The notes under the pieces are model-generated. The model saw only the letters and a program-made list of their open reading frames with translations. It ran no database searches and was not told where the DNA came from. This document shows positions 12 through 17,842 of a stretch of 64,000 nt of DNA, piece after piece. The stretch is from contig CAXXOA010000001.1 in the NCBI GenBank assembly GCA_963666275.2, forward strand, positions 1,344,001-1,408,000, read 5' to 3'. Source of the stretch: Oceanispirochaeta sp. (lineage in GTDB: Bacteria > Spirochaetota > Spirochaetia > DSM-2461). Position numbers and translations under genes: made by a program. Every line of letters starts with the position of its first letter. Within the stretch, counting starts at the first letter, position 1.

Positions 12-228
12 AAAACTCTTCTCCCTGTTGAGATAGTATAAAAACTAACTATTAGTAATTATAGAGTAATAAAAGGCGGAGGGGAAAGCAAATTCTCCGG
101 AGTTACAGTTTAAATTAATCTCCCAACCTTTTTTTATTTTCCTCATAATTTATGCTGTGATATACTGGGCGGGATTTGATAAAAAGAAATTTATGTTGAC
201 TGATAGTAAGGGGGAGGGAACAGAACCT

Positions 229-1266
229 ATGATATTTTATACAAACAGGGAACTGTATCAGAAGATTCTCTCTTCAGTTGAACACAGCCAAATGATATTT
301 ATAGGGGAAAATCCCCATAGGAACCGGAGCATCCATACTGTTGTCGCTGAGCTGATGATTGAGCTGGCAAAACAGACAGACTTCCAAATTTATGCGACTG
401 AGATGGTTTACAGCCTCTATCCCTTTATGGAGGAGAGCAGCCGACATGCCCGGGAAAGCCGGATGATTCCGGCGCAGATAACCAATTACAATAAATCCAT
501 GGAATCCCATAAAAGGATCATCTGTACCGCCCTGGATATGGCTCATGACGTAAGACATTCTCCCCATCTTGTAATGGAATTCATGGAGAACCTTATGGAT
601 GGATTGACTGATTCTTCCCTCAGACAGGCTCTCTCTGAAATCTGCAGGCTTTTTCCCGGGAATGAGGATGCTGAAGATAAAGAGATCCTGATCTGCAGGA
701 TGAAAGAAATCACAGAGCAATATAGAGGCAGTATAGAAGACGATACCTTCCGGGAGCTCTCTTTTTACTATGAACTCCTTTTGGCTTCTCTGGAGATTGG
801 CGGCTTGAATTTCCAATCTCAGGATGATCAGAGAAACAGATGGTTTATCCGTACCATAGAGAATGCCCTGGAAAGGTTGAAACAGGACAGGGCCAGAATG
901 GTCTGTCATGTGGGAGCCCCCCATGCCTATAAAAGCTATTTAAATGAAGACGATTACTATGTGGGAAAAATACCTGAAGCGGCCTACTTCGACCGCAAGG
1001 GAGGAGAAAATCCGGTTTTTTCCCTACAGATCCGACCCTTTTTCTGGACTAACCGGGGCGACTATTCAACCACACTGACGGATCCGCTGGAAATCCTTGC
1101 CTTTCAGGAACTGAAGGATTCTGATGCGGTCTATGTGGATCTGAGGGAATACTGTGAGAAGGCTGATGAGAACACAAGGAAGAAATACTCCTTAAATGGA
1201 CAATTTCAGTTTGACGGGATTCTTTTTGTAAAAGAAATTTGTAATCATGAGTACCAGATCAATTGA
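229..1266 (+). CDS. Erythromycin esterase (EreA/TIKI-like) family hydrolase
   Basis: IFIGENPH...FQIYATE N-terminal motif and RN..F...MVCHVGAPH C-terminal motif resemble the Ere fold; start moved to ATG 229 after GGGGAGG. Confidence 0.5.
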   Translation: MIFYTNRELYQKILSSVEHSQMIFIGENPHRNRSIHTVVAELMIELAKQTDFQIYATEMVYSLYPFMEESSRHARESRMIPAQITNYNKSMESHKRIICTALDMAHDVRHSPHLVMEFMENLMDGLTDSSLRQALSEICRLFPGNEDAEDKEILICRMKEITEQYRGSIEDDTFRELSFYYELLLASLEIGGLNFQSQDDQRNRWFIRTIENALERLKQDRARMVCHVGAPHAYKSYLNEDDYYVGKIPEAAYFDRKGGENPVFSLQIRPFFWTNRGDYSTTLTDPLEILAFQELKDSDAVYVDLREYCEKADENTRKKYSLNGQFQFDGILFVKEICNHEYQIN

Positions 1267-1340
1267 TGCCTATAGTAATTTGACTAGTATAAATTAGAAT
1301 CCCTCCATGGCATTATTTTTTTAATAGTAGAGGTCTGGAT

Positions 1341-1892
1341 ATGTTTGAAATAGAGACAGAAAGATTATACCTGCGGAACTGGAAACTCAGCGACAGCTCA
1401 GATGTTTATGAGTATGCAGGGAGTGAACTTGTCGGTCCCAATGCGGGATGGAATCCACACAGGTCGGAGCAGGAGTCCCTTGAAATTCTGAAAATGTTCC
1501 TTCGGGAGGATGAAACGCTGGCAGTGGAGCTGAAATCTGAGGGAAAAGTCATAGGCAGTGTAGGGCTTCATAATCGCAGACCTGATGAGAATCTCAGCAA
1601 TCTGAATCAGAGAGAAATCGGTTATGTTCTTAATCCCCTGTACTGGGGGAACGGATACATACCCGAAGCTGTGGAAGGACTCCTTGAAATCGGATTTATC
1701 AAGATGAAACTGGATCTGATATGGTGCGGTCATTTTGAAGAGAACTACAGGTCAAAAAGGGTCAATGAGAAGTGCGGATTCCATTTTCAGTTTGCAAAGG
1801 AACGGAATCTGACCCTGCTGGACAACAGGACGGTAATTACCTGGTATTACAATCTGAAAAAAGAAGAGTATCTGAGCAGACAGACAAGCTGA
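1341..1892 (+). CDS. RimJ/RimL-family GNAT N-acetyltransferase
   Basis: IETERLYLR, EIGYVLNPLYWGNGY, N..S.RV.EKCGF. Confidence 0.9.
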   Translation: MFEIETERLYLRNWKLSDSSDVYEYAGSELVGPNAGWNPHRSEQESLEILKMFLREDETLAVELKSEGKVIGSVGLHNRRPDENLSNLNQREIGYVLNPLYWGNGYIPEAVEGLLEIGFIKMKLDLIWCGHFEENYRSKRVNEKCGFHFQFAKERNLTLLDNRTVITWYYNLKKEEYLSRQTS

Positions 1893-2015
1893 ACAGCCGG
1901 TCTTTCGGATAAGAGCTCAGAGCTTTCTATAGCCATTTATCTCCCCACTACGTACAAATAATCTGAAATAATCAGAAAAATTTGTTTTTTCTAACATTCG
2001 GTACTATATTTATTT

Positions 2016-2044
2016 CAAAGAATAGAGCAATGTTCTATTCTTTG
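2016..2044. promoter_or_regulatory. Probable TetR operator (inverted repeat)
   Basis: CAAAGAATAGA-GCAATGT-TCTATTCTTTG, perfect 11-bp arms just upstream of the RBS of the DUF4260-tetR pair. Confidence 0.7.
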
Positions 2045-2060
2045 TTTTAGGAGGTTTATT

Positions 2061-2408
2061 ATGCCGAAGATTCATCTTCGTATTGACGGTTTAATGCTTA
2101 TGGCTGCCGGGCTGGCTCTCTATGCTCATTTTGACTATCCCTGGTGGATGTTCATTGTCTTTCTTTTTGCTCCGGATATTTTTATGGCGGGCTATCTTTT
2201 CTCTCCCCGTCTGGGTGCCCGGATCTATAATATCGGGCATACCCTGATCTGGCCGGTGTCCCTGGCTCTGATCGGTCTTTTCACTTCGGGAGGGCTCTGG
2301 TTCGCGGCGGCCCTGATCTGGACATGCCATATCGGTCTGGATCATCTGATCGGATACGGATTCAAATATGACGATGCCTTCGGGCATACCCATTTTTCGG
2401 AGATCTGA
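2061..2408 (+). CDS. DUF4260-family small membrane protein
   Basis: LRIDGL, FLFAPD..M.GY, YN..H, HIGLD...GYGFKY...F.HTH. Confidence 0.8.
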   Translation: MPKIHLRIDGLMLMAAGLALYAHFDYPWWMFIVFLFAPDIFMAGYLFSPRLGARIYNIGHTLIWPVSLALIGLFTSGGLWFAAALIWTCHIGLDHLIGYGFKYDDAFGHTHFSEI

Positions 2409-3074
2409 GTGGCCTACAGACGAACCGAAAGCCGTATCCGCCACAGCGAGGAAGTGAAGAACAGTATCCTTGCGGCTGCGGTTTCCCTGCTCGAAAAAGA
2501 GGGATTTTCAGCTCTGACAGTCAGAAAAACAGTGGCAGCTGCCGGTACATCCAATGGGAATTTCTATTTTTACTTCAGGGATAAGGAGGATCTGATAGAT
2601 CAGATTATCCGGAGTGAACTGGATAGACTGGGTGAGTTTATCGATCAGGCAGGAAGAGTTACTTCACGGGAAGATGATTCGGTCTACGCTGTATTGGCAT
2701 CCATGGTTTATACAGGAGTCAGGATAGGGTTGAGACTGGTCCGGGAGGAGGGGGTGCTCTTTCTTCCCGAACTGAGACCCCGGACTTTTGCGGGGCTGCG
2801 GGATTTTATGATTCAGAGAACTCAGAAGGTCTTTGCCCGGGGAGTCAACCTGCCGCCGGGACTGACTCCCTCACTGGCCGCTGTTTTATGGCAGGGATCA
2901 CTGTTGACTGTGATTGATGAGTTCCGCGATAGAAAAGAAGCCCATGGGGAGATTGCCAGGCAGTCCGCCGCCTGGAACCTGCGCGCCCTGGGAACATCCG
3001 AACCGGATATCCTCTCGTCCCTCATAAAGGCGGAAGCAATCTGGAGCACCATGGAAGAATCCTTTCTGAGTTGA
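2409..3074 (+). CDS. TetR/AcrR-family regulator
   Basis: ILAAAVSLLEKEGFSALTVRK..AAAGTSNGNFYFYFRDKEDL HTH. Confidence 0.9.
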   Translation: MAYRRTESRIRHSEEVKNSILAAAVSLLEKEGFSALTVRKTVAAAGTSNGNFYFYFRDKEDLIDQIIRSELDRLGEFIDQAGRVTSREDDSVYAVLASMVYTGVRIGLRLVREEGVLFLPELRPRTFAGLRDFMIQRTQKVFARGVNLPPGLTPSLAAVLWQGSLLTVIDEFRDRKEAHGEIARQSAAWNLRALGTSEPDILSSLIKAEAIWSTMEESFLS

Positions 3075-3122
3075 AAAATTCAAGCAGATCAATAGATTCT
3101 ATTTCCTTTATGGATGTCCTTC

Positions 3123-3180
3123 TTGACATAAGCGACACATATGTCGTATTTATAGTAAATATAAAACGACACTCATGTCG
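3123..3180 (+). promoter_or_regulatory. Sigma70-type -35 with two tandem TetR operators
   Basis: TTGACA at 3123; CGACA-N4-TGTCG palindromes at 3133-3146 and 3167-3180. Confidence 0.75.
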
Positions 3181-3200
3181 CTATTAAAGGGCGTACCACT

Positions 3201-3767
3201 TTGAACAAAGGCAGCAGAACAAAAGAAATAATATTGAATACGGCGTCCATTCTCTTTGCCCGGAAGGGATATGCCACTGTCACAATGAAGGATATCTGCG
3301 AATCCACTGAGCTCAGCCGGGGAGGGCTCTACAGGCACTTTTCATCAACCAAAGAGATTTTTATTGAGATCCTCAACAGGGACCTGGAATTGAACAGTGC
3401 CGCCGTGGATGCTGCCCTTCAGAACAATGTTTCCGCCCTGCGTATTTTTCAGCATTACCTGAATCAGGAAAAAGAAGCGGCATTAAGCAGAGACAGAGGT
3501 TTCTATTTTGCTGTTCATGAGTTTGCCTTCCTGGAACCGGATCAGCGGAAATACTTCAATCACAGGGTCGAAAAATCCCGGGAGATTCTTTCAAAAATTT
3601 TCCTCTATGGACAGGAACGGGGAGAGTTCGGACAGTTTGATATACCTGTGGTCTCAATGCATATCCTATATTTCTGGGACAGTATAAAAACATCATCCTC
3701 CATACTCACAATCACAGAAGAGGAAATTGAGAAACAGATGGAATTTATAAAGGAGCTCATACAGTGA
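3201..3767 (+). CDS. TetR/AcrR-family regulator
   Basis: ILNTASILFARKGYATVTMKDICESTELSRGGLYRHFSSTKEI. Confidence 0.9.
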   Translation: MNKGSRTKEIILNTASILFARKGYATVTMKDICESTELSRGGLYRHFSSTKEIFIEILNRDLELNSAAVDAALQNNVSALRIFQHYLNQEKEAALSRDRGFYFAVHEFAFLEPDQRKYFNHRVEKSREILSKIFLYGQERGEFGQFDIPVVSMHILYFWDSIKTSSSILTITEEEIEKQMEFIKELIQ

Positions 3768-4444
3768 AAATTTCTATTTTTAACGGCAGTCCCCGGGGAA
3801 AGGGCAGCAACACCAATGTGATCGCCTCGGCATTCCGCAAAGGAGCCGAATCGGCAGGAGCGGAGGTGCATAACTATTTTCTCATAGAGAAAGATATACA
3901 CCATTGCACAGGCTGTTTTTCCTGCTGGTATAAAACACCGGGTCAGTGTGTTTTTTCCGATGATATGCAGGAGCTGCTGGAAGCCTATATCACATCCGAT
4001 CTGGTATGCTTTGCCACTCCTGTCTACTCATGGACTCTGACAGCCTGTCTGAAAAACTTTATCGACAGACTGATCCCCCTCAAATCACCACGGGTGATAG
4101 AAGATCACGGGAATTTTGATATGCAGAACAGTAGAAGGAAAAATCCCGATGTCATGGTAATCGCCAATGCGGGGTTTCCGGGAGAAAACAATTTTCATAC
4201 TATCAAAACAGTCATGTCTGCCGCCCAACCTGTCTTTGAAATCTATCGTAACTGCGGCATGCTTCTTCAGTCCCGACGTCAGGATATAGCTGAAAAAGTT
4301 GGAGAATACCTGGAAAATGTCAGAAAAGCAGGCTTCCTTATGGCTGAGGGAAATGAAATTCCTGTAGAATTACATAGGGATCTGCAGATGGCACTTCTGA
4401 GTACGGAAAAATACATTGAGTACATCGGAGGCGGAAAAAAATGA
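3764..4444 (+). CDS. Flavodoxin-fold / iron-sulfur flavoprotein (NADPH-dependent FMN reductase family)
   Basis: NGSPRGKGSNT, CTGCFSCWYKTPGQC, ATPVY; overlaps the tetR stop. Confidence 0.85.
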   Translation: MKISIFNGSPRGKGSNTNVIASAFRKGAESAGAEVHNYFLIEKDIHHCTGCFSCWYKTPGQCVFSDDMQELLEAYITSDLVCFATPVYSWTLTACLKNFIDRLIPLKSPRVIEDHGNFDMQNSRRKNPDVMVIANAGFPGENNFHTIKTVMSAAQPVFEIYRNCGMLLQSRRQDIAEKVGEYLENVRKAGFLMAEGNEIPVELHRDLQMALLSTEKYIEYIGGGKK

Positions 4445-4498
4445 TTTTCCTGAAAGAATTTTCTTTATCGGAAAGATTTGCAGGAGAGAGGGGAACCA

Positions 4499-5155
4499 TT
4501 GAAAACAACAATACTCTTTGATCTGGATGGAACTCTGACAGATCCCGGCAGAGGTATTACAAAATCCGTTCAATACTCATTGAAGAAGTTTGATATTCCT
4601 GTTGAAGATCTGAAGACTCTGCATACATTTATAGGGCCTCCCCTGGGAGAGTCTTTCCGTCAGTACTTCGGTTTTTCCGAAGACCAGTCCCGGATGGCCA
4701 TAGACTATTACAGAGAGTATTTTTCCGAAAAAGGGCTCTATGAGAATGAGATCTATCCGGGGATCCCCGACCTGCTGGCAGGTCTGAAAGAGAGAGGAGT
4801 CACTACCGCTGTGGCTACCTCCAAACCGACCCGGTTCGCCCGTCAGATCCTGGAGCATTTCAAACTGGACCACCTGTTTGATGAAATCATAGGAAGCAAT
4901 CTGGATAACACCCGAACCGACAAAAAAGATATTATAGCTTTTGCTCTGGATCAGCTGAATAGAAACAATAAAGAATCGCTTATGGTCGGTGACAGAAAAC
5001 ATGATATCATCGGGGCTGTGGCCCATAAGATGGAATCAGTGGGTGTACTTTACGGCTATGGATCCAGAGAAGAGCTTGAAGGGGCAGGGGCTGACTGGAT
5101 TGCCGGAGATGTGAGTGAACTGGGCAGGATTCTGGATGGGCTTATTACACCATAG
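4499..5155 (+). CDS. HAD-family hydrolase (phosphoglycolate phosphatase/5'-nucleotidase-like)
   Basis: FDLDGTL, ATSK, MVGDRKHD, YGYG; probable TTG start at 4499. Confidence 0.9.
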   Translation: MKTTILFDLDGTLTDPGRGITKSVQYSLKKFDIPVEDLKTLHTFIGPPLGESFRQYFGFSEDQSRMAIDYYREYFSEKGLYENEIYPGIPDLLAGLKERGVTTAVATSKPTRFARQILEHFKLDHLFDEIIGSNLDNTRTDKKDIIAFALDQLNRNNKESLMVGDRKHDIIGAVAHKMESVGVLYGYGSREELEGAGADWIAGDVSELGRILDGLITP

Positions 5156-5191
5156 CTCCGGAAGGAGTGTCTCCGCTCGAAGGATAGGACA

Positions 5192-6112
5192 ATGATAAAC
5201 CGTGTTCCGAGCTTACTTCGCAGTACCAGATATGAAAACTGCCGAGTCGAAAGGCTTGTGAAAGAGGGTTATGAATATCCAGATCTTTTTGTTCTCACAA
5301 ATCCTGAGGGCCAACGTTTCTACCTTAAAATTGCAGATCAGGAGAATCCCACCCTGAATGTATCTCTTCCCCTTCTGGAAAAGATGAAAAATCCCAATTC
5401 GCTTATACAGAAATATAGGGACATTCTGAAATTTGAGGGTCTGTACGGACTGATTACAGAAGAGATCACCCTAGAATCCTCCGTCCCCATAACATCGGGC
5501 TCCTCCGTCCCCAGGGAACGCTCCATTGTTCCTGATCAAACAAATATGAAAACCCTATTCCGTAGACTTGCTGGATTTCACAAAGAAAATATGAACCTTG
5601 AAGAAAAGATAACATCCAACTATCTGGACTATGAGCCATTTAATTCTGTTTCTGAACTAGTTGATGCTGAATTCAGAATGCATAAGACCTCACTGCCGGA
5701 AAGGTTTGTGCCCGGGATTGCTTCAGTAGTGGAGCCTTTGAAGAAGGGTTTTAAAACAGTCATTCACGGGAATATTCATAAGGGGAATATGATTCAGGGA
5801 GAGTTCCCCCAGCTCATTGATACAGAGACCCTTCATATGAGCTGCAATCTGTATGACTTTGAGTATTTTGATCTTTCAGGCTTCTATGGGAATTCACAGC
5901 TGTATTTTCACAGGGAAGCACGGGAGTGTTATGACGCCTATTTTGAAGAGCTGAACTACGGTGAATCAGAAACGCTGGCCGCAGTCTGCGCTATTGAGAT
6001 GCTGAATCTTCTCAGAGAGATAACTTTCAGAACCTGGCAGGGGGAGTTGACTGTCAGAAACTGGGCGGAACCGAAACTGGATTCACTGATAGAGATGAGT
6101 AAACAGGTATAA
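5192..6112 (+). CDS. Aminoglycoside phosphotransferase/choline kinase-like fold protein, possibly degenerate
   Basis: FYLKI, VIHGNIHKGNM (HGD replaced by HGN), LIDTE; contains two CCTCCGTCCC repeats in frame. Confidence 0.6.
   Translation: MINRVPSLLRSTRYENCRVERLVKEGYEYPDLFVLTNPEGQRFYLKIADQENPTLNVSLPLLEKMKNPNSLIQKYRDILKFEGLYGLITEEITLESSVPITSGSSVPRERSIVPDQTNMKTLFRRLAGFHKENMNLEEKITSNYLDYEPFNSVSELVDAEFRMHKTSLPERFVPGIASVVEPLKKGFKTVIHGNIHKGNMIQGEFPQLIDTETLHMSCNLYDFEYFDLSGFYGNSQLYFHREARECYDAYFEELNYGESETLAAVCAIEMLNLLREITFRTWQGELTVRNWAEPKLDSLIEMSKQV
5478..5511 (-). repeat. Two copies of the RAYT-associated 10-mer, inside a CDS
   Basis: CCTCCGTCCC at 5478-5487 and 5502-5511. Confidence 0.8.
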
Positions 6113-6124
6113 AAGGATGCACCT

Positions 6125-6364
6125 ATGTTTATAAGGGGTTTCAAAGAGGGAGAGGAAAGCGTATTGAGAGAAGTCTTTTGTTCTTCTATCCATGGGAATA
6201 CAGAAAAGTTTTATACGGAAAGACAGCAGAATGCCTGGGCTCCCGCAGATTATGATGAAGAGGATTGGTCTAGACGGATCCGTCAGCTGCACCCCTATGT
6301 GATGGAAGATCAGGGAAAGATTATTGGATATGCTGACCTTCAGGATGATGGATATATAGATTGA
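6125..6364 (+). pseudogene. Truncated YafP-like GNAT acetyltransferase
   Basis: YTERQQNAWAP...IIGYADLQDDGYID then stop; the acetyl-CoA-binding half (R/QxxGxG/A) is missing. Confidence 0.7.
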
Positions 6365-6513
6365 AAAACGGACTCCATTGAGACAAGGACTATCCGGAAG
6401 TCATCTAAAAGAGGTCAGTTGTATCTCCTTCTTCCCTGAAACTGTCTTTTCCGGTTGTATGATAGAATGGAGGGCAGGAGAGATCGATACTAATTCCTGG
6501 TAAGTCATACACA

Positions 6514-7377
6514 ATGAATATAGAAAAACAAATTGAGTCCAATAAAAGAGTAAACCTGTTTTTTCACGACCTGGAAAAGGTGATGAATCTGGATAAGGAT
6601 TTTGTCAGGGAACTTCTGGAACTGAAAAAGAAGCAGGCTGACCTGCCGGATGAGGAAGTGGAAAAAATCACCCGGAAAGTCCTGCAGATTTTTTATGGCA
6701 TTAATCAGTATCTGAATGTAACGCACAAGGATATTGAGGATCTAAAAAATATTTACAGAGTCACCTATGCCGAGGCCGCGGAAACGAATATCCATGAGGT
6801 GATGATAGAGCATCACAAACAGTTGTCCCTCTGGCTCTCCCGGTTCTATCCGGCTCAGTTTATTGAGCAGCTGAAAAGACAGGAGGAGATCGGCAGTGTT
6901 CTGAATGAGGAGTATACTGCAGAATTCCAGAGAACAATACTGGATCTTGATATCCCCTCTCTGAAGGAACCCATCCTGGATATTGGCTGCGGTTCCCGCG
7001 GGCATCTGGTGACAGCTCTGAACCGGCAGGGCAAACAGGCCTGGGGGATTGATAGAGTTATCCATTCCAGCGAAAAGTATTTCCGGGAACAGAGCTGGTT
7101 TGAATACAAATTTGAAAAGGAAAGCTGGGGAACAATCATATCCCATATGAGTTTCTCAAATCATCTTCTTTTTACCTATCGACATGATCCCGAAAAATTG
7201 CCGGAGTATCTGAATACCTTCAAAGAGATTCTGGAATCACTCAGGATTCACGGGACTTTTATCTACACTCCGTCTATACCTTTTCTGGAGAATTATCTGG
7301 AAGGAGCAGGCTATACGATCTGCAGTAGGGAAATAGCTGAGCAGATCAACAGATCCACGATCCAAAGGAACTGGTAA
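6514..7377 (+). CDS. Class I SAM-dependent methyltransferase
   Basis: ILDIGCGSRG motif I, AWGID. Confidence 0.75.
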   Translation: MNIEKQIESNKRVNLFFHDLEKVMNLDKDFVRELLELKKKQADLPDEEVEKITRKVLQIFYGINQYLNVTHKDIEDLKNIYRVTYAEAAETNIHEVMIEHHKQLSLWLSRFYPAQFIEQLKRQEEIGSVLNEEYTAEFQRTILDLDIPSLKEPILDIGCGSRGHLVTALNRQGKQAWGIDRVIHSSEKYFREQSWFEYKFEKESWGTIISHMSFSNHLLFTYRHDPEKLPEYLNTFKEILESLRIHGTFIYTPSIPFLENYLEGAGYTICSREIAEQINRSTIQRNW

Positions 7378-7482
7378 CAGAGGAAGTAACTCTCCGGTGG
7401 CTGGAGTTGCATGAGAGAAATGAGACGATTCAGCTGAACCAGTGAAAAAAATTAGCCGCTGGAATTTATCCTTTCCAGAAAA

Positions 7483-7738
7483 CCTCCGTCCCCCCATTGT
7501 CTATCCTCCGTCCCCCGGAAAAACAGATATAACCAAAACAGGGGTTTAAAACTGAAAGAGACCTGACTCTCATATGTATTAGTTTTCCCGAATCGTATAG
7601 ACTTTTCGTGAAAGGGACGGAGGTTTTGTTTTAATTGTTGGAGAGAGGGACGGAGGTTTGGTAGGAGTGAGAAAGGTCGAGGGACGGAGGATTTAAGGCG
7701 AGGGACGGAGGATTTAAGGCGAGGGACGGAGGATTTAA
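7483..7738. repeat. Cluster of seven 10-mer motifs, including a 3 x 21-bp tandem repeat
   Basis: CCTCCGTCCC at 7483, 7505; GGGACGGAGG at 7614, 7647, 7681, 7702, 7723; (CGAGGGACGGAGGATTTAAGG) repeated about 3 times at 7678-7738. Confidence 0.95.
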
Positions 7739-7745
7739 AAAGGTT

Positions 7746-8204
7746 ATGAGAAGAAAAGATAAGAAAATCCAGGATCAGAAGGTAATTGATGAAATCTTTC
7801 TGAAAAACAAAGTCTGTCGAATAGGGTTTGTTGATGATAACAAGCCTTATGTGATCTCTATGAATTACGGTTATCAGGAGAATCTCATTTATGTGCACAG
7901 TGCTCTGGAAGGCCGGAAAATTGAGATCATTCAAAAGAATAACAGTGTCTGTGTGGAGATCGCCGATGCCATTGAAGTGGTGGACGCTGAAAAAGCTTGT
8001 GATTTCACAACAAAATACCGGTCTCTGGTCTGCGAAGGGAAAATCCATTTTCTCGCAGACTTAGGTGAAAAAAGAGAGGCTCTGGAAAGAATCATGCTGC
8101 ACCATACCGGAAATTCCAATTGGAACATGCCTGATCCTGCTATAGAGAAAATTGCCGTAATGAAGATAGTGCTTCAGACTATCAGCGGGAAGATTTCCGG
8201 ATAG
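7746..8204 (+). CDS. Pyridoxamine 5'-phosphate oxidase / Nim-like flavin-binding protein
   Basis: MRRKDK, PYVISMNYGY, YVHSALEGRK, YRSLVCEG, ISGK. Confidence 0.85.
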   Translation: MRRKDKKIQDQKVIDEIFLKNKVCRIGFVDDNKPYVISMNYGYQENLIYVHSALEGRKIEIIQKNNSVCVEIADAIEVVDAEKACDFTTKYRSLVCEGKIHFLADLGEKREALERIMLHHTGNSNWNMPDPAIEKIAVMKIVLQTISGKISG

Positions 8205-8291
8205 GTATTTAAAAATGGCATAGAAAGAAGGATAATTTGATTTTATAAAGAGGGGATGAATTAAGATCCCTTAGGCACAATCAGATAATCA

Positions 8292-8320
8292 AAACCGGGA
8301 GTCTTTGGGGATCCCGGTTT
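8292..8320. terminator. Probable bidirectional intrinsic terminator
   Basis: AAACCGGGA-loop-TCCCGGTTT between convergent genes. Confidence 0.7.
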
Positions 8321-8327
8321 AATTTTA

Positions 8328-9488
8328 TCAATTGGAAGAAACACACCAGATAACGGCGTCATGAGTTGTATCTGTTAAATCATAGGCTGTCTCATTTTCC
8401 CAATAGCGTGCAACTTTAGTTGTTCCTAATGTTGGTTTATCCTCTGTTTCATATCCTACAGAATAAATGTTCCCATCAATGGCAAGTATTTTGAAAATAT
8501 CACAAAAATGATCTGCAGTGTTCAGATTGTGTACTGTTGTATCACTCCAGTAATTCAGCTGTATTAATGATAACTCTGCGTAAGCTTTTGCTGTACAAAA
8601 GACTGTATTATTGTTCACCACAATGTCTTTTAAAAGAGAGGTTCTTGTGTAAGATTCAGCAAGTGAAACTGAAGAAGAAATACTGAAATCAGAAAGGTCC
8701 ATAGTCCAATAAGTTCCAATATCTTTTGATGCAGAAGTAGAGTATTCTGATCCACATATGTAAAGGGTAGTTCCCGATAGATCTAACCCCCATGTTTCTG
8801 CAAAAGTATCAGAAGCAGGAACTGGGTAGGTGTCAAAACCTCCTGTCAGATTGGTTAAATCACCTACATAAACATAAGCGTTTCTATTTGGATAATCAGA
8901 ATCTTCATCAAGATATCCCGTAAGGTATATCTTGTTATTGTCAATAACAAGGTCTCTGGCAACAGGGTAACCACCAGAATCTACAGTATATTTCTGTATT
9001 GTTCCGTTTTGATCAATTTCATAAAGATACAACGCTGTATCTAAGTCATTGGTAAATATATAGATCTTATCATTGAAAATCTGAAAATCCTGTCCATTTA
9101 GATAGCTGTCTGGTAATTCTTTTATTAACTGAGAGTTTTTATAATAACAGAGAGTATCGTCCGTTCCATTAAAAACAAGTGCATATATGTCATCTTCATA
9201 AATTACTATATCCTGTACTGTCGTATAATCAGAACCATCTAAAAGGGGAATTTCAACTATATCTGATTTGTTGTTTTTATCAACTTTCCAGATTGTGGCA
9301 ACTCCATCATTTCTACCACCAAAATACAGAAATGTTTTAGAAATTGTTGAATCCTCATTTTCCTGTTCGCTATTGGAGCTTTCCTGATCTTGAGCGTTTT
9401 CATCGTCTTCTTTATCACTCATAGCAGGATTTTCACATCCAATAAAAATAATTATAACAAAAATGAGAAAAATAATAGTTTTTTTCAT
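8328..9488 (-). CDS. AT-rich lipoprotein, probable beta-propeller
   Basis: MKKTIIFLIFVIIIFIG-C lipobox, acidic linker, repeated beta-strand units (DIVIYEDDIY, DLVIDNNKIY, DIVVNNNTVF); start at 9488 after GAGGA. Confidence 0.75.
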   Translation of the reverse strand: MKKTIIFLIFVIIIFIGCENPAMSDKEDDENAQDQESSNSEQENEDSTISKTFLYFGGRNDGVATIWKVDKNNKSDIVEIPLLDGSDYTTVQDIVIYEDDIYALVFNGTDDTLCYYKNSQLIKELPDSYLNGQDFQIFNDKIYIFTNDLDTALYLYEIDQNGTIQKYTVDSGGYPVARDLVIDNNKIYLTGYLDEDSDYPNRNAYVYVGDLTNLTGGFDTYPVPASDTFAETWGLDLSGTTLYICGSEYSTSASKDIGTYWTMDLSDFSISSSVSLAESYTRTSLLKDIVVNNNTVFCTAKAYAELSLIQLNYWSDTTVHNLNTADHFCDIFKILAIDGNIYSVGYETEDKPTLGTTKVARYWENETAYDLTDTTHDAVIWCVSSN

Positions 9489-9630
9489 AATAAGTATTTC
9501 CTCGTTTATTTTAGAAAGACAATACCATATTAAAAATATACACTCAAGTGATTTTTCAGAGAAATGAACAGAAGATCCGATTAAATAGATTCTTATCATG
9601 TATTACTTGTGTATTACATGGTGGTACATG

Positions 9631-9640
9631 GGGACGGAGG
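9631..9640 (+). repeat. 10-mer motif upstream of RAYT
   Basis: GGGACGGAGG ending 64 bp before the transposase ATG. Confidence 0.85.
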
Positions 9641-9704
9641 ATCTTTTCGAGAAAATAATTTTAGGAATTGAATCAGCCATACACTTTCTTCTGTTAATAG
9701 TAAC

Positions 9705-10199
9705 ATGAGAAAACCAAGATTAACCCGACAGGGTGCGACGTATCATGTCACGGCCAAAACCAACAGAGGAGAGTTTATATTTGAAGATGACAATATCAAA
9801 GAGCTCTTCTGTTCGGTTGTAGATGAATCCAGAGATCGCTATGATTTCCGCCTAACTAATTATTCTGTAATGACTAATCATGTTCATATGCTCATCGAAC
9901 CATTAGAGGGAACAGAATTATCAAGAATGCTTCAATGGATCTTCAGCGTTTTTGCCTGCCGGTATAACAAAATGACAGGACAGAAGGGCCATGTCTGGTA
10001 CGACCGGTTCAAGAGTAAAATTGTCAGGACTTTTCTTCAGTGGATTAATACCTTCAATTACATCACCAATAATCCTGTGAAAGCAGGATTGTGTCACTCT
10101 CCTGAGAAATATTTCTACAGCGGCATGCATGAACTGAAGAAAAAGCGGTTTAGGCTGCTCAATCCACCGGATAACTGGATCTCAGCTCTGTTTCAATAA
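9705..10199 (+). mobile_element. REP-associated tyrosine transposase (RAYT / TnpA-Y1, IS200-like HUH endonuclease)
   Basis: YHVT..TNR, MTNHVHML (HUH), GHVWYDRFKS, YITNNPVKAG (catalytic Tyr); 164 aa, no tnpB partner. Confidence 0.92.
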
Positions 10200-10482
10200 A
10201 ATTTCTTATCTGAATCAGAGAAAACTCACGTTTGCATGTATCAATATTAATTGAAAAACATCCTCCTTTTACTGATAACAGGCTAGTTGTATTCTGCAAA
10301 TAAGCTGAATGAATTATTGATACACAAAACTCCTATTTTATTTTTTAAAAAATATCATCTTAAACAATCAAATCTGTGGTTTTGTGACTTCTAAGACTCT
10401 CTTTATTGATCCTATTTGGTTTGACCCCGGGAATTAAAAGAGAAAATAGGCCCTTTATGCTGAAAAATGCTGATTTTTTAAG

Positions 10483-10568
10483 CCTCCGTCCCTTAAATTA
10501 GCGGTCAGGATAGCCTCCTTCCCGCTTTTTCCCCGCTGCTTCTTCTTTACCTTCCATGCCTCCGTCCC
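10483..10568 (-). repeat. Downstream cluster of 10-mer motifs
   Basis: CCTCCGTCCC at 10483 and 10559; one-mismatch CCTCCTTCCC at 10514. Confidence 0.9.
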
Positions 10569-10741
10569 TGAACAAATGATTTTTATTACTGTTTTTCTAC
10601 GAAAAAACCATACTCATAAGTCCCGGATATGTAAAAATATATTGAATTAACCTCGAGAAAAGAGCTGTATAACTGCTGTTTATGTCGGTATAGATTTATC
10701 GAAAAAGGTTTACAAATCTAACTAATAGAGTAAAAATATAC

Positions 10742-10838
10742 CTGCCGAGCGAAACTCCTAAGCCGGGCCGGAACGGTAGGGAATTATGCCGATAGGGTCT
10801 TTCTGGAAACGGATAGGCCTCCCATTGTGGAAAGGCGA
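10742..10838 (+). ncRNA. Moco/Tuco riboswitch (Moco RNA motif)
   Basis: CCGAG...CCTAAG...AGGG-stem-GGAAAC-stem-GCCTCCC...GGAAAGG in the leader of the tungstate/Moco operon. Confidence 0.8.
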
Positions 10839-10914
10839 AGATACAAAACTGGATGAAAAAATTCTGAAATGCGTCTCTATCGCCTTCAATAATCTTATTT
10901 ATTGGAGATCTTGA

Positions 10915-16781: not shown

Positions 16782-16791
16782 GGGACGGAGG
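16782..16791 (+). repeat. Isolated 10-mer motif between convergent genes
   Basis: GGGACGGAGG in the mogA/lacI intergenic region. Confidence 0.7.
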
Positions 16792-16834: not shown

Positions 16835-17842
16835 TTATCTGTTTCCCAGAGTTTCTCCCGGGTGCAGCTCCGGCAGTATCAGCCTCGCCTCGGAGGGCCC
16901 TGTCTTACCGGATATCACATCCAGCAGAAGGTTCACAGCTTCCATCCCCAGGGCAATCCGTTCGTTGCTCCAGCAGGTCCATTTCACATTCGAAGTAAAC
17001 CACTGGTCCTCCAGAAGGACGGCAGATATATCCTCTCCCAGAGTTAATCCCATGTCTTCGCAGGTTTTTTCAAGCTGGATCGCCAGTTCCTTTCTTTCCA
17101 GAAAGAGCAGACTGACCTCTTCATTGAGAAAATCCCGGATCATTGAATCAGTTATGCCCTCTGTTTTGACGCTGAGGCACTCTCCCCGACCCGAAATCTC
17201 CCAGGCCCGGTCAAGAAAATCCTGTCTGTCTGAGTAGGGTTCGCTGTTTTCGCTGTTCCGGAGGTACCGGCATCTGGTGTGGCCTTTTTCACAGGCCAGA
17301 CGGACAAGGTTCTCTATGACATTTTTATAGTCATAGTTCACCATATTAACCTGCCGCCCCTCCATATCCCTTCTTCCTATAAACACAAGAGGAAAGTTGT
17401 CGTCAATCAGCCTGAGCAGGACATCCGTATGCCGTTCGATACCGATGAGGATTCCTCCGTCCCCCAGTTTCAGTCTGTTCAGGTCAACCGGAGCCCCGTT
17501 GCTGTGGCGCTGTTTATTCGTCAGGAGGAGTATATCAAAACCGGTTTTTTCGGCAGTTTTCTCTATGCCCAGCAGAAACTCGTAAAATTCACTTTCCGCT
17601 TCAAAGGGAAAGGCCGCTTCATAGGAGAAAATAGACAGTATGTGCGATTTTCCCGACACAAGGTTCTGGGCGGCCGGGTTGGGGACATAGCCCAGTTTGC
17701 GGGCGGCTTCCTGAATCTTCTCCTGACTCTCTTTTCCCACCCGGATCCCTTTTCCCACTTTGTTGTTGAGAACTGCAGAAACCGCAGAGGGGGAGACCCC
17801 GGCTTCCTGCGCCACATCTTTGATACTGATCTTCTTCTTCAT
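16835..17842 (-). CDS. LacI-family transcriptional regulator
   Basis: ISIKDVAQEAGVSPSAVSAVLN, LGYVPNPAAQNL. Confidence 0.93.
   Translation of the reverse strand: MKKKISIKDVAQEAGVSPSAVSAVLNNKVGKGIRVGKESQEKIQEAARKLGYVPNPAAQNLVSGKSHILSIFSYEAAFPFEAESEFYEFLLGIEKTAEKTGFDILLLTNKQRHSNGAPVDLNRLKLGDGGILIGIERHTDVLLRLIDDNFPLVFIGRRDMEGRQVNMVNYDYKNVIENLVRLACEKGHTRCRYLRNSENSEPYSDRQDFLDRAWEISGRGECLSVKTEGITDSMIRDFLNEEVSLLFLERKELAIQLEKTCEDMGLTLGEDISAVLLEDQWFTSNVKWTCWSNERIALGMEAVNLLLDVISGKTGPSEARLILPELHPGETLGNR

Follow-up and report, generated by a model that had tools for sequence, protein, structure and literature searches.

The 64,000-nucleotide (nt) stretch of Oceanispirochaeta sp. DNA analysed here (contig CAXXOA010000001.1, positions 1,344,001 to 1,408,000; hereafter the window, in whose coordinates features are given unless a genome and contig are named) carries a gene for a minimal HUH/Y1 enzyme of 164 amino acids (aa) and, around it, exact copies of a short word, GGGACGGAGG, which we call G-type in this orientation and C-type in the other. 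Our central observation is that, in the genome holding the window (G000) and in six other genomes, the density of the exact word close to the Y1 gene exceeds that at a distance by a factor of tens to hundreds, the excess fading over 5-50 kb. This distance-decaying halo inside core genes, which we regard as the main feature of the region, was missing from the initial annotation. We put at roughly 0.6 the probability that the minimal HUH enzyme imposes its own word on the surrounding genes, either by a molecular drive limited to cis or by direct re-writing; on this reading about four in five permissive sites within 10 kb would have been filled, core proteins changed and the word of each lineage tracked, with the process lapsing when the gene is lost.

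The halo was measured against the reversed word as a control. The ratio of word to control is 1.4-9.5 in all nine of the searched genomes that hold the Y1 clade, among which kin genomes are not independent, and the word exceeds the control in only one of 32 genomes without the clade (plus one case of 1 versus 0). G000 as a whole has 65 copies of the word versus 21 of the reversed word; the 70 kb of DNA lying at most 5 kb from Y1 units contains 14 copies, compared with 17 in the 4.0 Mb that lies more than 100 kb away (control word, 0). A second genome, G008, has 42 words in 160 kb around two Y1 genes, at densities per 100 kb of 25-67 within 10 kb, 11 at 20-50 kb and 0.7 far away, and four relatives without Y1 at the syntenic DNA (120-140 kb) have 0, 0, 0 and 0 words; a third, G033, has 15 words in 40 kb. 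Four further single-contig genomes with one Y1 gene each were picked before looking, and all four have a halo, with 67-156 words per 100 kb within 2 kb versus 0.3-0.5 beyond 100 kb. The highest densities, close to the gene, are about 1 per kb. Halo words are specific to lineages, each blind-picked genome having its own variant: in G351, all 25 R-flanked exact copies in 40 kb are RGGGACAGAGCT.

Most of these words lie within genes. Over 41 regions, which are related to each other, 307 of the 421 words more than 500 nt from the Y1 gene fall inside open reading frames (ORFs), in all frames, and 245 words face the gene while 176 face away. At an XRE site and a tonB-like site the word is present in the species with an adjoining Y1 gene and absent in the aligned species without one. 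(The labels hsp70, tonB, XRE, cobQ, rmuC, clpX, lon and argJ are what we take these genes to be from their translations; purC comes from a profile search.)

Within genes the words arise mainly without gaps. The 42 sites in G008 comprise 18 without an orthologous ORF, four that are unit ends or unalignable, and 20 that can be aligned; 17 of the 20 are gap-free and three carry in-frame gains of +3, +6 and +12 nt. Nine G008 sites have three or more outgroups; at these, on average 3 of the 10 bases separate the word from the nearest outgroup, the flanks are native, and lineage-specific changes are about twice background. Between closer pairs (~86-96% identical), gap-free sites bearing the word on one side are mostly 1-2 bases apart, and one-sided sites between genes often show a deletion or duplication between direct copies. 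At locus L174 (17134-17985) we noted an allele without two words that are common to L181, L184 and L206; this allele is locally more diverged, as if recombined from a halo-free donor.

Once present, the words are kept. Over 10 pairs of genomes (99.5% to ~71% identity), 130 of 138 sites were retained versus 71.1 expected from codon-position rates, and in the two most distant informative pairs 10 of 10 sites were kept versus 0.7 expected and 10 of 11 versus 1.6. Shared sites vary only at position 6 (G/A), -1 and +10, and their flanks are not unusually conserved. The four blind-picked genomes have 50 sites within 10 kb of the gene at which the amino acids permit the word, and 42 of these hold a perfect copy; at 15 loci mostly chosen for their halos the count is 158 of 203. 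By comparison, the control word is perfect in 1 of 76 cases, and the word itself in 20 of 540 at G000 sites remote from units and in 0 of 63 in orthologous DNA lacking Y1. With 203 permissive positions for the word versus 76 for the control, perfect words near the gene far outnumber what synonymous change could supply, and at many word sites the amino acids have therefore been altered, in some cases at a column that every outgroup conserves.

A mutation hot spot on the 3' side of the word, on the other hand, did not survive scrutiny. It first looked strong in two strain sets (33/285 versus 3.5%; 5/186 versus 0.46%), figures in which facing words had been partly double-counted; with 10 pairs, a codon-position control and overlaps removed, the ratio in genes was 1.14 (p 0.12), and we do not claim it. 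A residue appears only between genes (31 versus 11.8) and in one pair (19 versus 4.1).

The Y1 gene is part of a small unit conserved in the genus. In the window this unit is 9631-10492 (with its array, to 10568), holding the Y1 gene only between inverted copies of RGGGACGGAGGW, the form to which preferred flanks extend the word; the extended word is 11-12 nt long, with the consensus RGGGACRGAGS and lineage variants. The left-end word GGGACGGAGG (9631-9640, plus strand) lies 74 nt before the ATG and is the most constant feature of the clade, an inward G-type word being found at most 260 nt upstream in 101 of the 114 homologues with enough flank. Downstream of it, about 38 nt before the ATG, is a TTGAA(G/T)C box (9667-9673, plus strand), which from its sequence is likely the -35 element of a leaderless promoter; such a box occurs in 15 of 19 left ends and, in a looser form at -42 to -30, in 55 of 114 clade-wide, and it does not appear in the list produced by a consensus promoter scan. 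The Y1 gene (9705-10199, plus strand) is followed by an AT-rich non-coding tail (10200-10482, 30% GC) whose length is conserved but whose sequence is not: tails measure 233-320 nt in 16 of 16 units and gave only two short pairwise BLAST matches. We found no structured RNA or hidden ORF in this tail, which has no Rfam match and is not a conserved frame. The right-end array (10483-10568, minus strand) has exact words at 10483 and 10559 and a one-mismatch copy at 10514.

G000 holds eight copies of the unit, six intact (55-76% identity to the window protein), one frameshifted and one truncated. In all eight an inward word precedes the ATG by 61-91 nt, and in seven an inverted word lies at +774 to +808. 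In 16 of the 17 full-length copies in the genus the unit is 804-909 bp long and contains the Y1 gene only; the seventeenth, which lacks a right-hand word, was excluded from sizing. The ends of the G000 copies have just 10-12 nt in common, and those of some metagenome loci up to 18 nt. Units occupy sites that are empty in relatives: the hsp70-like site is empty in five of five relatives, the XRE site is empty in two and filled in one (two could not be assigned), and the tonB-like site is filled in G004 and not in G003. Between genes the relatives are too diverged for exact insertion junctions or target duplications to be read at these empty sites, and no empty site was found for the unit in the window: in all six relatives compared (of seven), other genes lie upstream of the tungstate-binding one.

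Related units at different sites have 5-9 nt outside the word in common, and several duplications begin 7-10 nt outside it. One of these, at G000:C2:583645-585775 (L067), is a tandem duplication of a whole unit together with ~190 nt of flanking sequence, in which the initial 137 nt of an hsp70-like gene are contained; its copies are 97.9% identical, one is frameshifted, and it starts 9 nt outside the word, as does a 28-nt duplication that distinguishes 99%-identical strains. These shared bases and duplication starts suggest that the enzyme cuts on the outer side of the word, at a distance of 5-10 nt. The tandem arrays did not yield one fixed cut position: their junctions scatter, and only an outer boundary at about -5 to -10 recurs. 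A Y1 remnant with an internal deletion (L069, G000:C2:2036500-2036762) has its left word directly upstream of a DNA polymerase III alpha-like gene and has no halo.

The initial annotation had called the enzyme a REP-associated tyrosine transposase (RAYT), and profile searches bear this out: the protein scores 92 bits against the NCBIfam model REP_Tyr_transpos (NF047646; cut-off 80) and also matches Pfam Y1_Tnp, while it falls short of the IS200 model NF033573 (25 bits versus a cut-off of 55). It is RAYT-like and, more narrowly, TIRYT-like, with the motifs NHVH (H59-V-H61) and YITNNP (from Y119). H59, H61 and Y119 are invariant across 18 aligned homologues, and the catalytic HUH and YxxxNP are kept in 124 of 124 distinct homologues. 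The clade, found in 74 of 401 genomes of the class, has a median length of 171 aa (154-204) and lacks a C-terminal helix-turn-helix (HTH); in accordance with this, the predicted structure of the window protein (pLDDT 82.5) ends in two short helices with no HTH tail. The best PDB match of the model is Escherichia coli TnpA-REP (4er8, TM 0.67), also the sole match by sequence. The closest named locus is in Candidatus Marispirochaeta associata (53% identity). In some homologues (L146, L158 and L202) the nearest words face outward rather than inward, and around a 204-aa homologue (L200, L203) a different word, GGGGACGGTG, is frequent; GGGACGGTGT also lies outside two right ends in G000.

How a halo might be built can be laid out in four steps, beginning with a 0.8-0.9-kb unit in a site that is empty in relatives. 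The protein would then bind RGGGACRGAGS and nick some 5-10 nt outside it, yielding the ends of the unit and also the small duplications and deletions seen where copies lie between genes, as in the array at 7614-7732. In genes, the word arises gap-free at partly matching places, keeps its native flanks and is retained far beyond expectation. Finally, newly made protein would work mainly in cis, and a nick by a perfect word would free a strand able to convert word-less homologous copies, whether on sister chromosomes or on incoming DNA. Mutations completing the word would thus be driven up and those breaking it purged, even at some cost to the encoded protein. Such a drive would formally be the one proposed for uptake sequences, with its reach kept to 5-50 kb around a single gene by the place at which the protein is made. 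Cis preference is known for transposases, and multiple chromosome copies (polyploidy) for spirochaetes. When an HUH enzyme of this fold cleaves a single strand, it remains attached to the 5' end, which it joins to a 3'-OH (PMC8266576). A lineage-matched preference would be expected, the G351 protein favouring GGGACAGAGCT and the window protein GGGACGGAGG, and with no C-terminal HTH the core itself would have to read the word. To the specific proposal of a local drive of the uptake-sequence type, in which the Y1 enzyme works in cis and lets alleles with the word prevail in recombination, we give even odds on the strength of these genome comparisons.

Several observations weigh against the idea that the enzyme imposes its word in this way. 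Three of the 41 regions have no word beyond 500 nt from the gene and six more have only one. Conversely, G373 has eight words in 40 kb (L264-L265, C1:2.00-2.02 Mb), several of them a GAGC variant, where no Y1 gene was found; this orphan cluster is possibly an imported island or the trace of a recent loss. Words with one or two mismatches, over-represented under uptake-sequence drive, are at background density. At four of the nine well-aligned G008 sites, 4-6 of the 10 positions depart from the outgroup majority, which by a rough estimate exceeds the yield of a model in which only the last step is driven. L067 is the only near-identical duplicate in G000. An inverted word pair around the gene is present in only 36 of 91 homologues clade-wide, so that the word is not a universal transposon end. 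The 10 pairs used to estimate retention share ancestry and are not independent, and the ORF calls were mechanical and include some spurious frames.

The alternative that survives best is selection by the host on binding sites: words near the gene would soak up or organise the protein, through self-repression, less toxic nicking or chromosome structure, with no bias in conversion. The pattern of retention, in which positions 6, -1 and +10 alone tolerate change, is what marks a protein-binding site; the most constant copy is just upstream of a promoter-like box; and some Y1 genes stay at one locus across ~30% DNA divergence. We nonetheless consider this explanation rather unlikely, in view of the excess of perfect words over what synonymous change could supply and of the altered amino acids, some at columns that all outgroups conserve, a high price for one marginal extra site among dozens.

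Less probable again, and in our view doubtful, is that the enzyme pastes the 10-12-nt word in one step into partly matching nearby sites and re-writes decayed copies. This would fit the abundance of exact words beside one-mismatch words that are not enriched, the sites that lie 4-6 positions off every outgroup within conserved flanks, and the three sites with small in-frame gains; what speaks against it is that the gap-free one-sided sites of closer pairs are mostly only 1-2 bases apart, that the mean distance of 3 in 10 to the nearest outgroup is far below random, that no donor flank is carried in, and that the sites are old and common to several species rather than recent.

The initial annotation had offered another explanation, in which the arrays are the joints of a cassette-capturing device and 7614-10568 moves whole with two passenger genes. 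As described above, the conserved unit is smaller and holds the Y1 gene only. The two enclosed genes are a PNPOx-like accessory gene (7746-8204, plus strand), situated between the halo array and the unit, with a best match in 10 genus genomes that is only 24-39% identical, and a lipoprotein-like gene (8328-9491, minus strand; 34% GC), head-to-head with the Y1 gene. The PNPOx-like character of the first gene agrees with the initial annotation, while its score against the Nim model is far below the cut-off (62 bits versus 260). Neither gene has an orthologue that we could find in the 10 genus genomes. In a tree of Y1 copies built without reference members of the TnpA-Y1 subclasses, the window copy has a sister (support 91/100) whose outer array and Y1 gene enclose purC, a gene present in five of five relatives, and cassette shuffling is therefore poorly supported. 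A search of contigs from three sequencing runs on one sample (depth 2-10) revealed no excision joint, a weak test since contigs drop rare variants.

There is one unit with a passenger gene. At G000:C2:914730-915598 (L063:3730-4598), a segment of unit size with both words and a Y1-type promoter box carries an HTH gene in place of the Y1 gene, and it is absent in five of five relatives; at least one replacement of a gene within a unit has therefore taken place. In G002 and G003, no words bracket the homologues of the passenger gene. The right end of this segment is followed by a short inverted copy, forming a 7-bp hairpin beside the stop of a cobQ-like gene. At G000:C1:1463710, two convergent genes are separated by a hairpin that the word makes with a partial inverted copy of itself, an arrangement resembling the uptake-sequence pairs of terminators.

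The cassette explanation can draw on that HTH unit, on the L067 duplication, which copied ~190 nt of flank with the start of a host gene, and on the fact that each of the two sister Y1 genes adjoins a divergent accessory-type gene, but it is improbable given purC in the equivalent sister span, the unbracketed homologues, the many halo words inside ORFs and in both orientations, and the missing excision joint. What stands of the initial proposal is a non-hairpin repeat tied to a RAYT-like enzyme.

Among described systems the closest likeness is to TIRtrons, in which a RAYT-like gene (TIRYT) lies between inverted repeats, not REP hairpins, and whose repeats likewise occur as singles, dimers and clusters (PMC3733652). 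The core GGGGWSAS is found in most, not all, published terminal inverted repeats (PMC3733652); the GGGGACAG variant (G351, L184) fits it and GGGGACGG of the window is one base off. The differences are that the repeat here is only 11-12 nt, that a downstream copy occurs in a minority of the clade, and that there is a distance-decaying halo, mostly in genes; no such halo is described for TIRtrons in the available part of PMC3733652. PMC6006769 equates TIRYTs with TnpA-Y1 subclass 2.1 of class 2, whose motifs take the forms NHVH or NH[YF]H and Y[IV]xxNP. The clade described here resembles that subclass in its NHVH and YxxxNP motifs, in lacking REP hairpins and in having several diverged copies per genome. 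It differs in length and domain content, as subclass 2.1 has a median of 238 aa and all 20 TIRYTs placed in it have a C-terminal HTH (PMC6006769), compared with 171 aa and no HTH here. The element works like a TIRtron but lacks both the long terminal inverted repeats and the HTH tail, and it is therefore a TIRtron-like variant, not a plain member. Group 1 RAYTs are described as having only modest flanking repeats (PMC5581495).

REPtrons (TnpA-REP/RAYT groups 2 and 3; PMC8266576; PDB 4er8) have in common with our element the fold, the HUH/Tyr single-strand cleavage chemistry and a resident gene tied to a repeat. REPs, however, are GTAG-tagged hairpins that are mostly intergenic, whereas the word here forms no hairpin, is local, and arises in coding sequence by substitution; no GTAG- or CGTC-tagged hairpin repeats were found. 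IS200/IS605 elements differ in that the present enzyme has YxxxNP instead of Y---Q, and subterminal hairpins and a pattern of near-identical copies are absent, the intact copies being 55-76% identical. DNA uptake sequences (USS/DUS) are also short non-palindromic words in both orientations that arise by mutation and recombination, not insertion, accumulate in genes and alter proteins, and their density is comparable to that near the Y1 gene (PMC2817400). They are, however, even genome-wide, driven by uptake machinery, and over-represented in one-mismatch forms (PMC2817400), while the excess here goes with a single transposase-like gene and tails off within 5-50 kb of it. As for integrons, the gaps between genes left of the array are mostly short, and no search aimed at an integrase or attC was made. 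Among the literature matches listed, nothing dealt with the halo, the word or a follow-up of TIRYTs, subscription journals being mostly outside coverage, and the halo behaviour is apparently undescribed.

Class 2 TnpA-Y1 genes occur in about a quarter of bacterial species (PMC6006769), and the proposal bears on what the hairpin-less ones do. Here a substrate can be named (RGGGACRGAGS and its lineage variants), the likely cut zone is mapped and the genomic effect is large and measurable, which makes the proposal testable with one 164-aa protein and short oligonucleotides. If the enzyme does drive or re-write its word into its neighbourhood, a selfish gene would be editing the chromosome around it in a new manner, and the large TIRYT/subclass 2.1-like group would gain a function; the process would parallel the evolution of uptake sequences on a local scale, without the need for an uptake receptor, would produce amino-acid changes that would be misread as adaptation, and might provide a compact tool for sequence-directed nicking or conversion.

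Returning to the window, all 14 exact copies of GGGACGGAGG or its complement reported in the initial annotation are present, each at exactly the position reported. The chance expectation of 0.1 copy given there was low but harmless, shuffled sequences having a mean of 0.25 and a maximum of 2. Allowing up to one mismatch gives 16 copies versus 5.3 by chance, near-matches thus not being enriched. The orientations given for 7483-10568 hold, and one correction concerns the two distal copies: the copy at 16782-16791 (plus strand), a single intergenic halo word, is G-type, and that at 17454-17463 (minus strand), a halo word in a LacI-family gene, is C-type. The latter is one synonymous change away from the orthologue in G002, where there is no Y1 match. 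What had been described as six G-type copies at 7614-9640 consists of five at 7614-7732 and the one at 9631, which is the conserved left end of the Y1 unit. The five (7614-7732, plus strand) form an intergenic halo array with spacings of 33, 34, 21 and 21, the last three words being a 21-bp tandem amplification; this array and similar ones are better read as halo copies amplified in intergenic space than as cassette joints. It is not an assembly artefact, since short-read contigs from one sample break exactly at 7678-7728 and elsewhere match the window.

To its left, a pair of words at 7483 and 7505 followed by CCGGAAAAACAG (7483-7530, minus strand) has the same arrangement as the right end of the sister unit at G000:C2:2113832 and is possibly a leftover right end. 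No notable hairpin was found in the motif regions (six stretches compared with shuffles, z -1.45 to +0.94), nor a consensus stem in the flanks of the 65 genome copies. Two further halo words, both exact (5478-5511, minus strand), lie in frame within ORF 5192-6112, which encodes a 306-aa kinase/phosphotransferase-like protein (a weak kinase match), in its linker region. Among proteins of 168-536 aa in a collection of 5.8 billion this ORF matched only itself, longer and shorter forms not having been searched.

This ORF belongs to a run of co-oriented small accessory genes at 157-7377 (GNAT, DUF4260, two TetR, flavin reductase, HAD, kinase-like and methyltransferase), for which no DNA match was found upstream of the transporter genes in six relatives. 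A short GNAT-like frame at ~6126-6362 looks truncated. On the other side, the Y1 unit ends 160 nt before a Moco (molybdenum/tungsten) riboswitch (RF01055, 52.1 bits; 10731-10853), which precedes genes for a tungstate/molybdate-type ABC transporter and molybdopterin genes. Elsewhere in G000 we observed other dispersed repeats of 40-110 nt, with several copies in the genome and unrelated to the word, at C1:510716-510774 and 512018-512068 and at C2:2037735-2037824 and 2038225-2038350.

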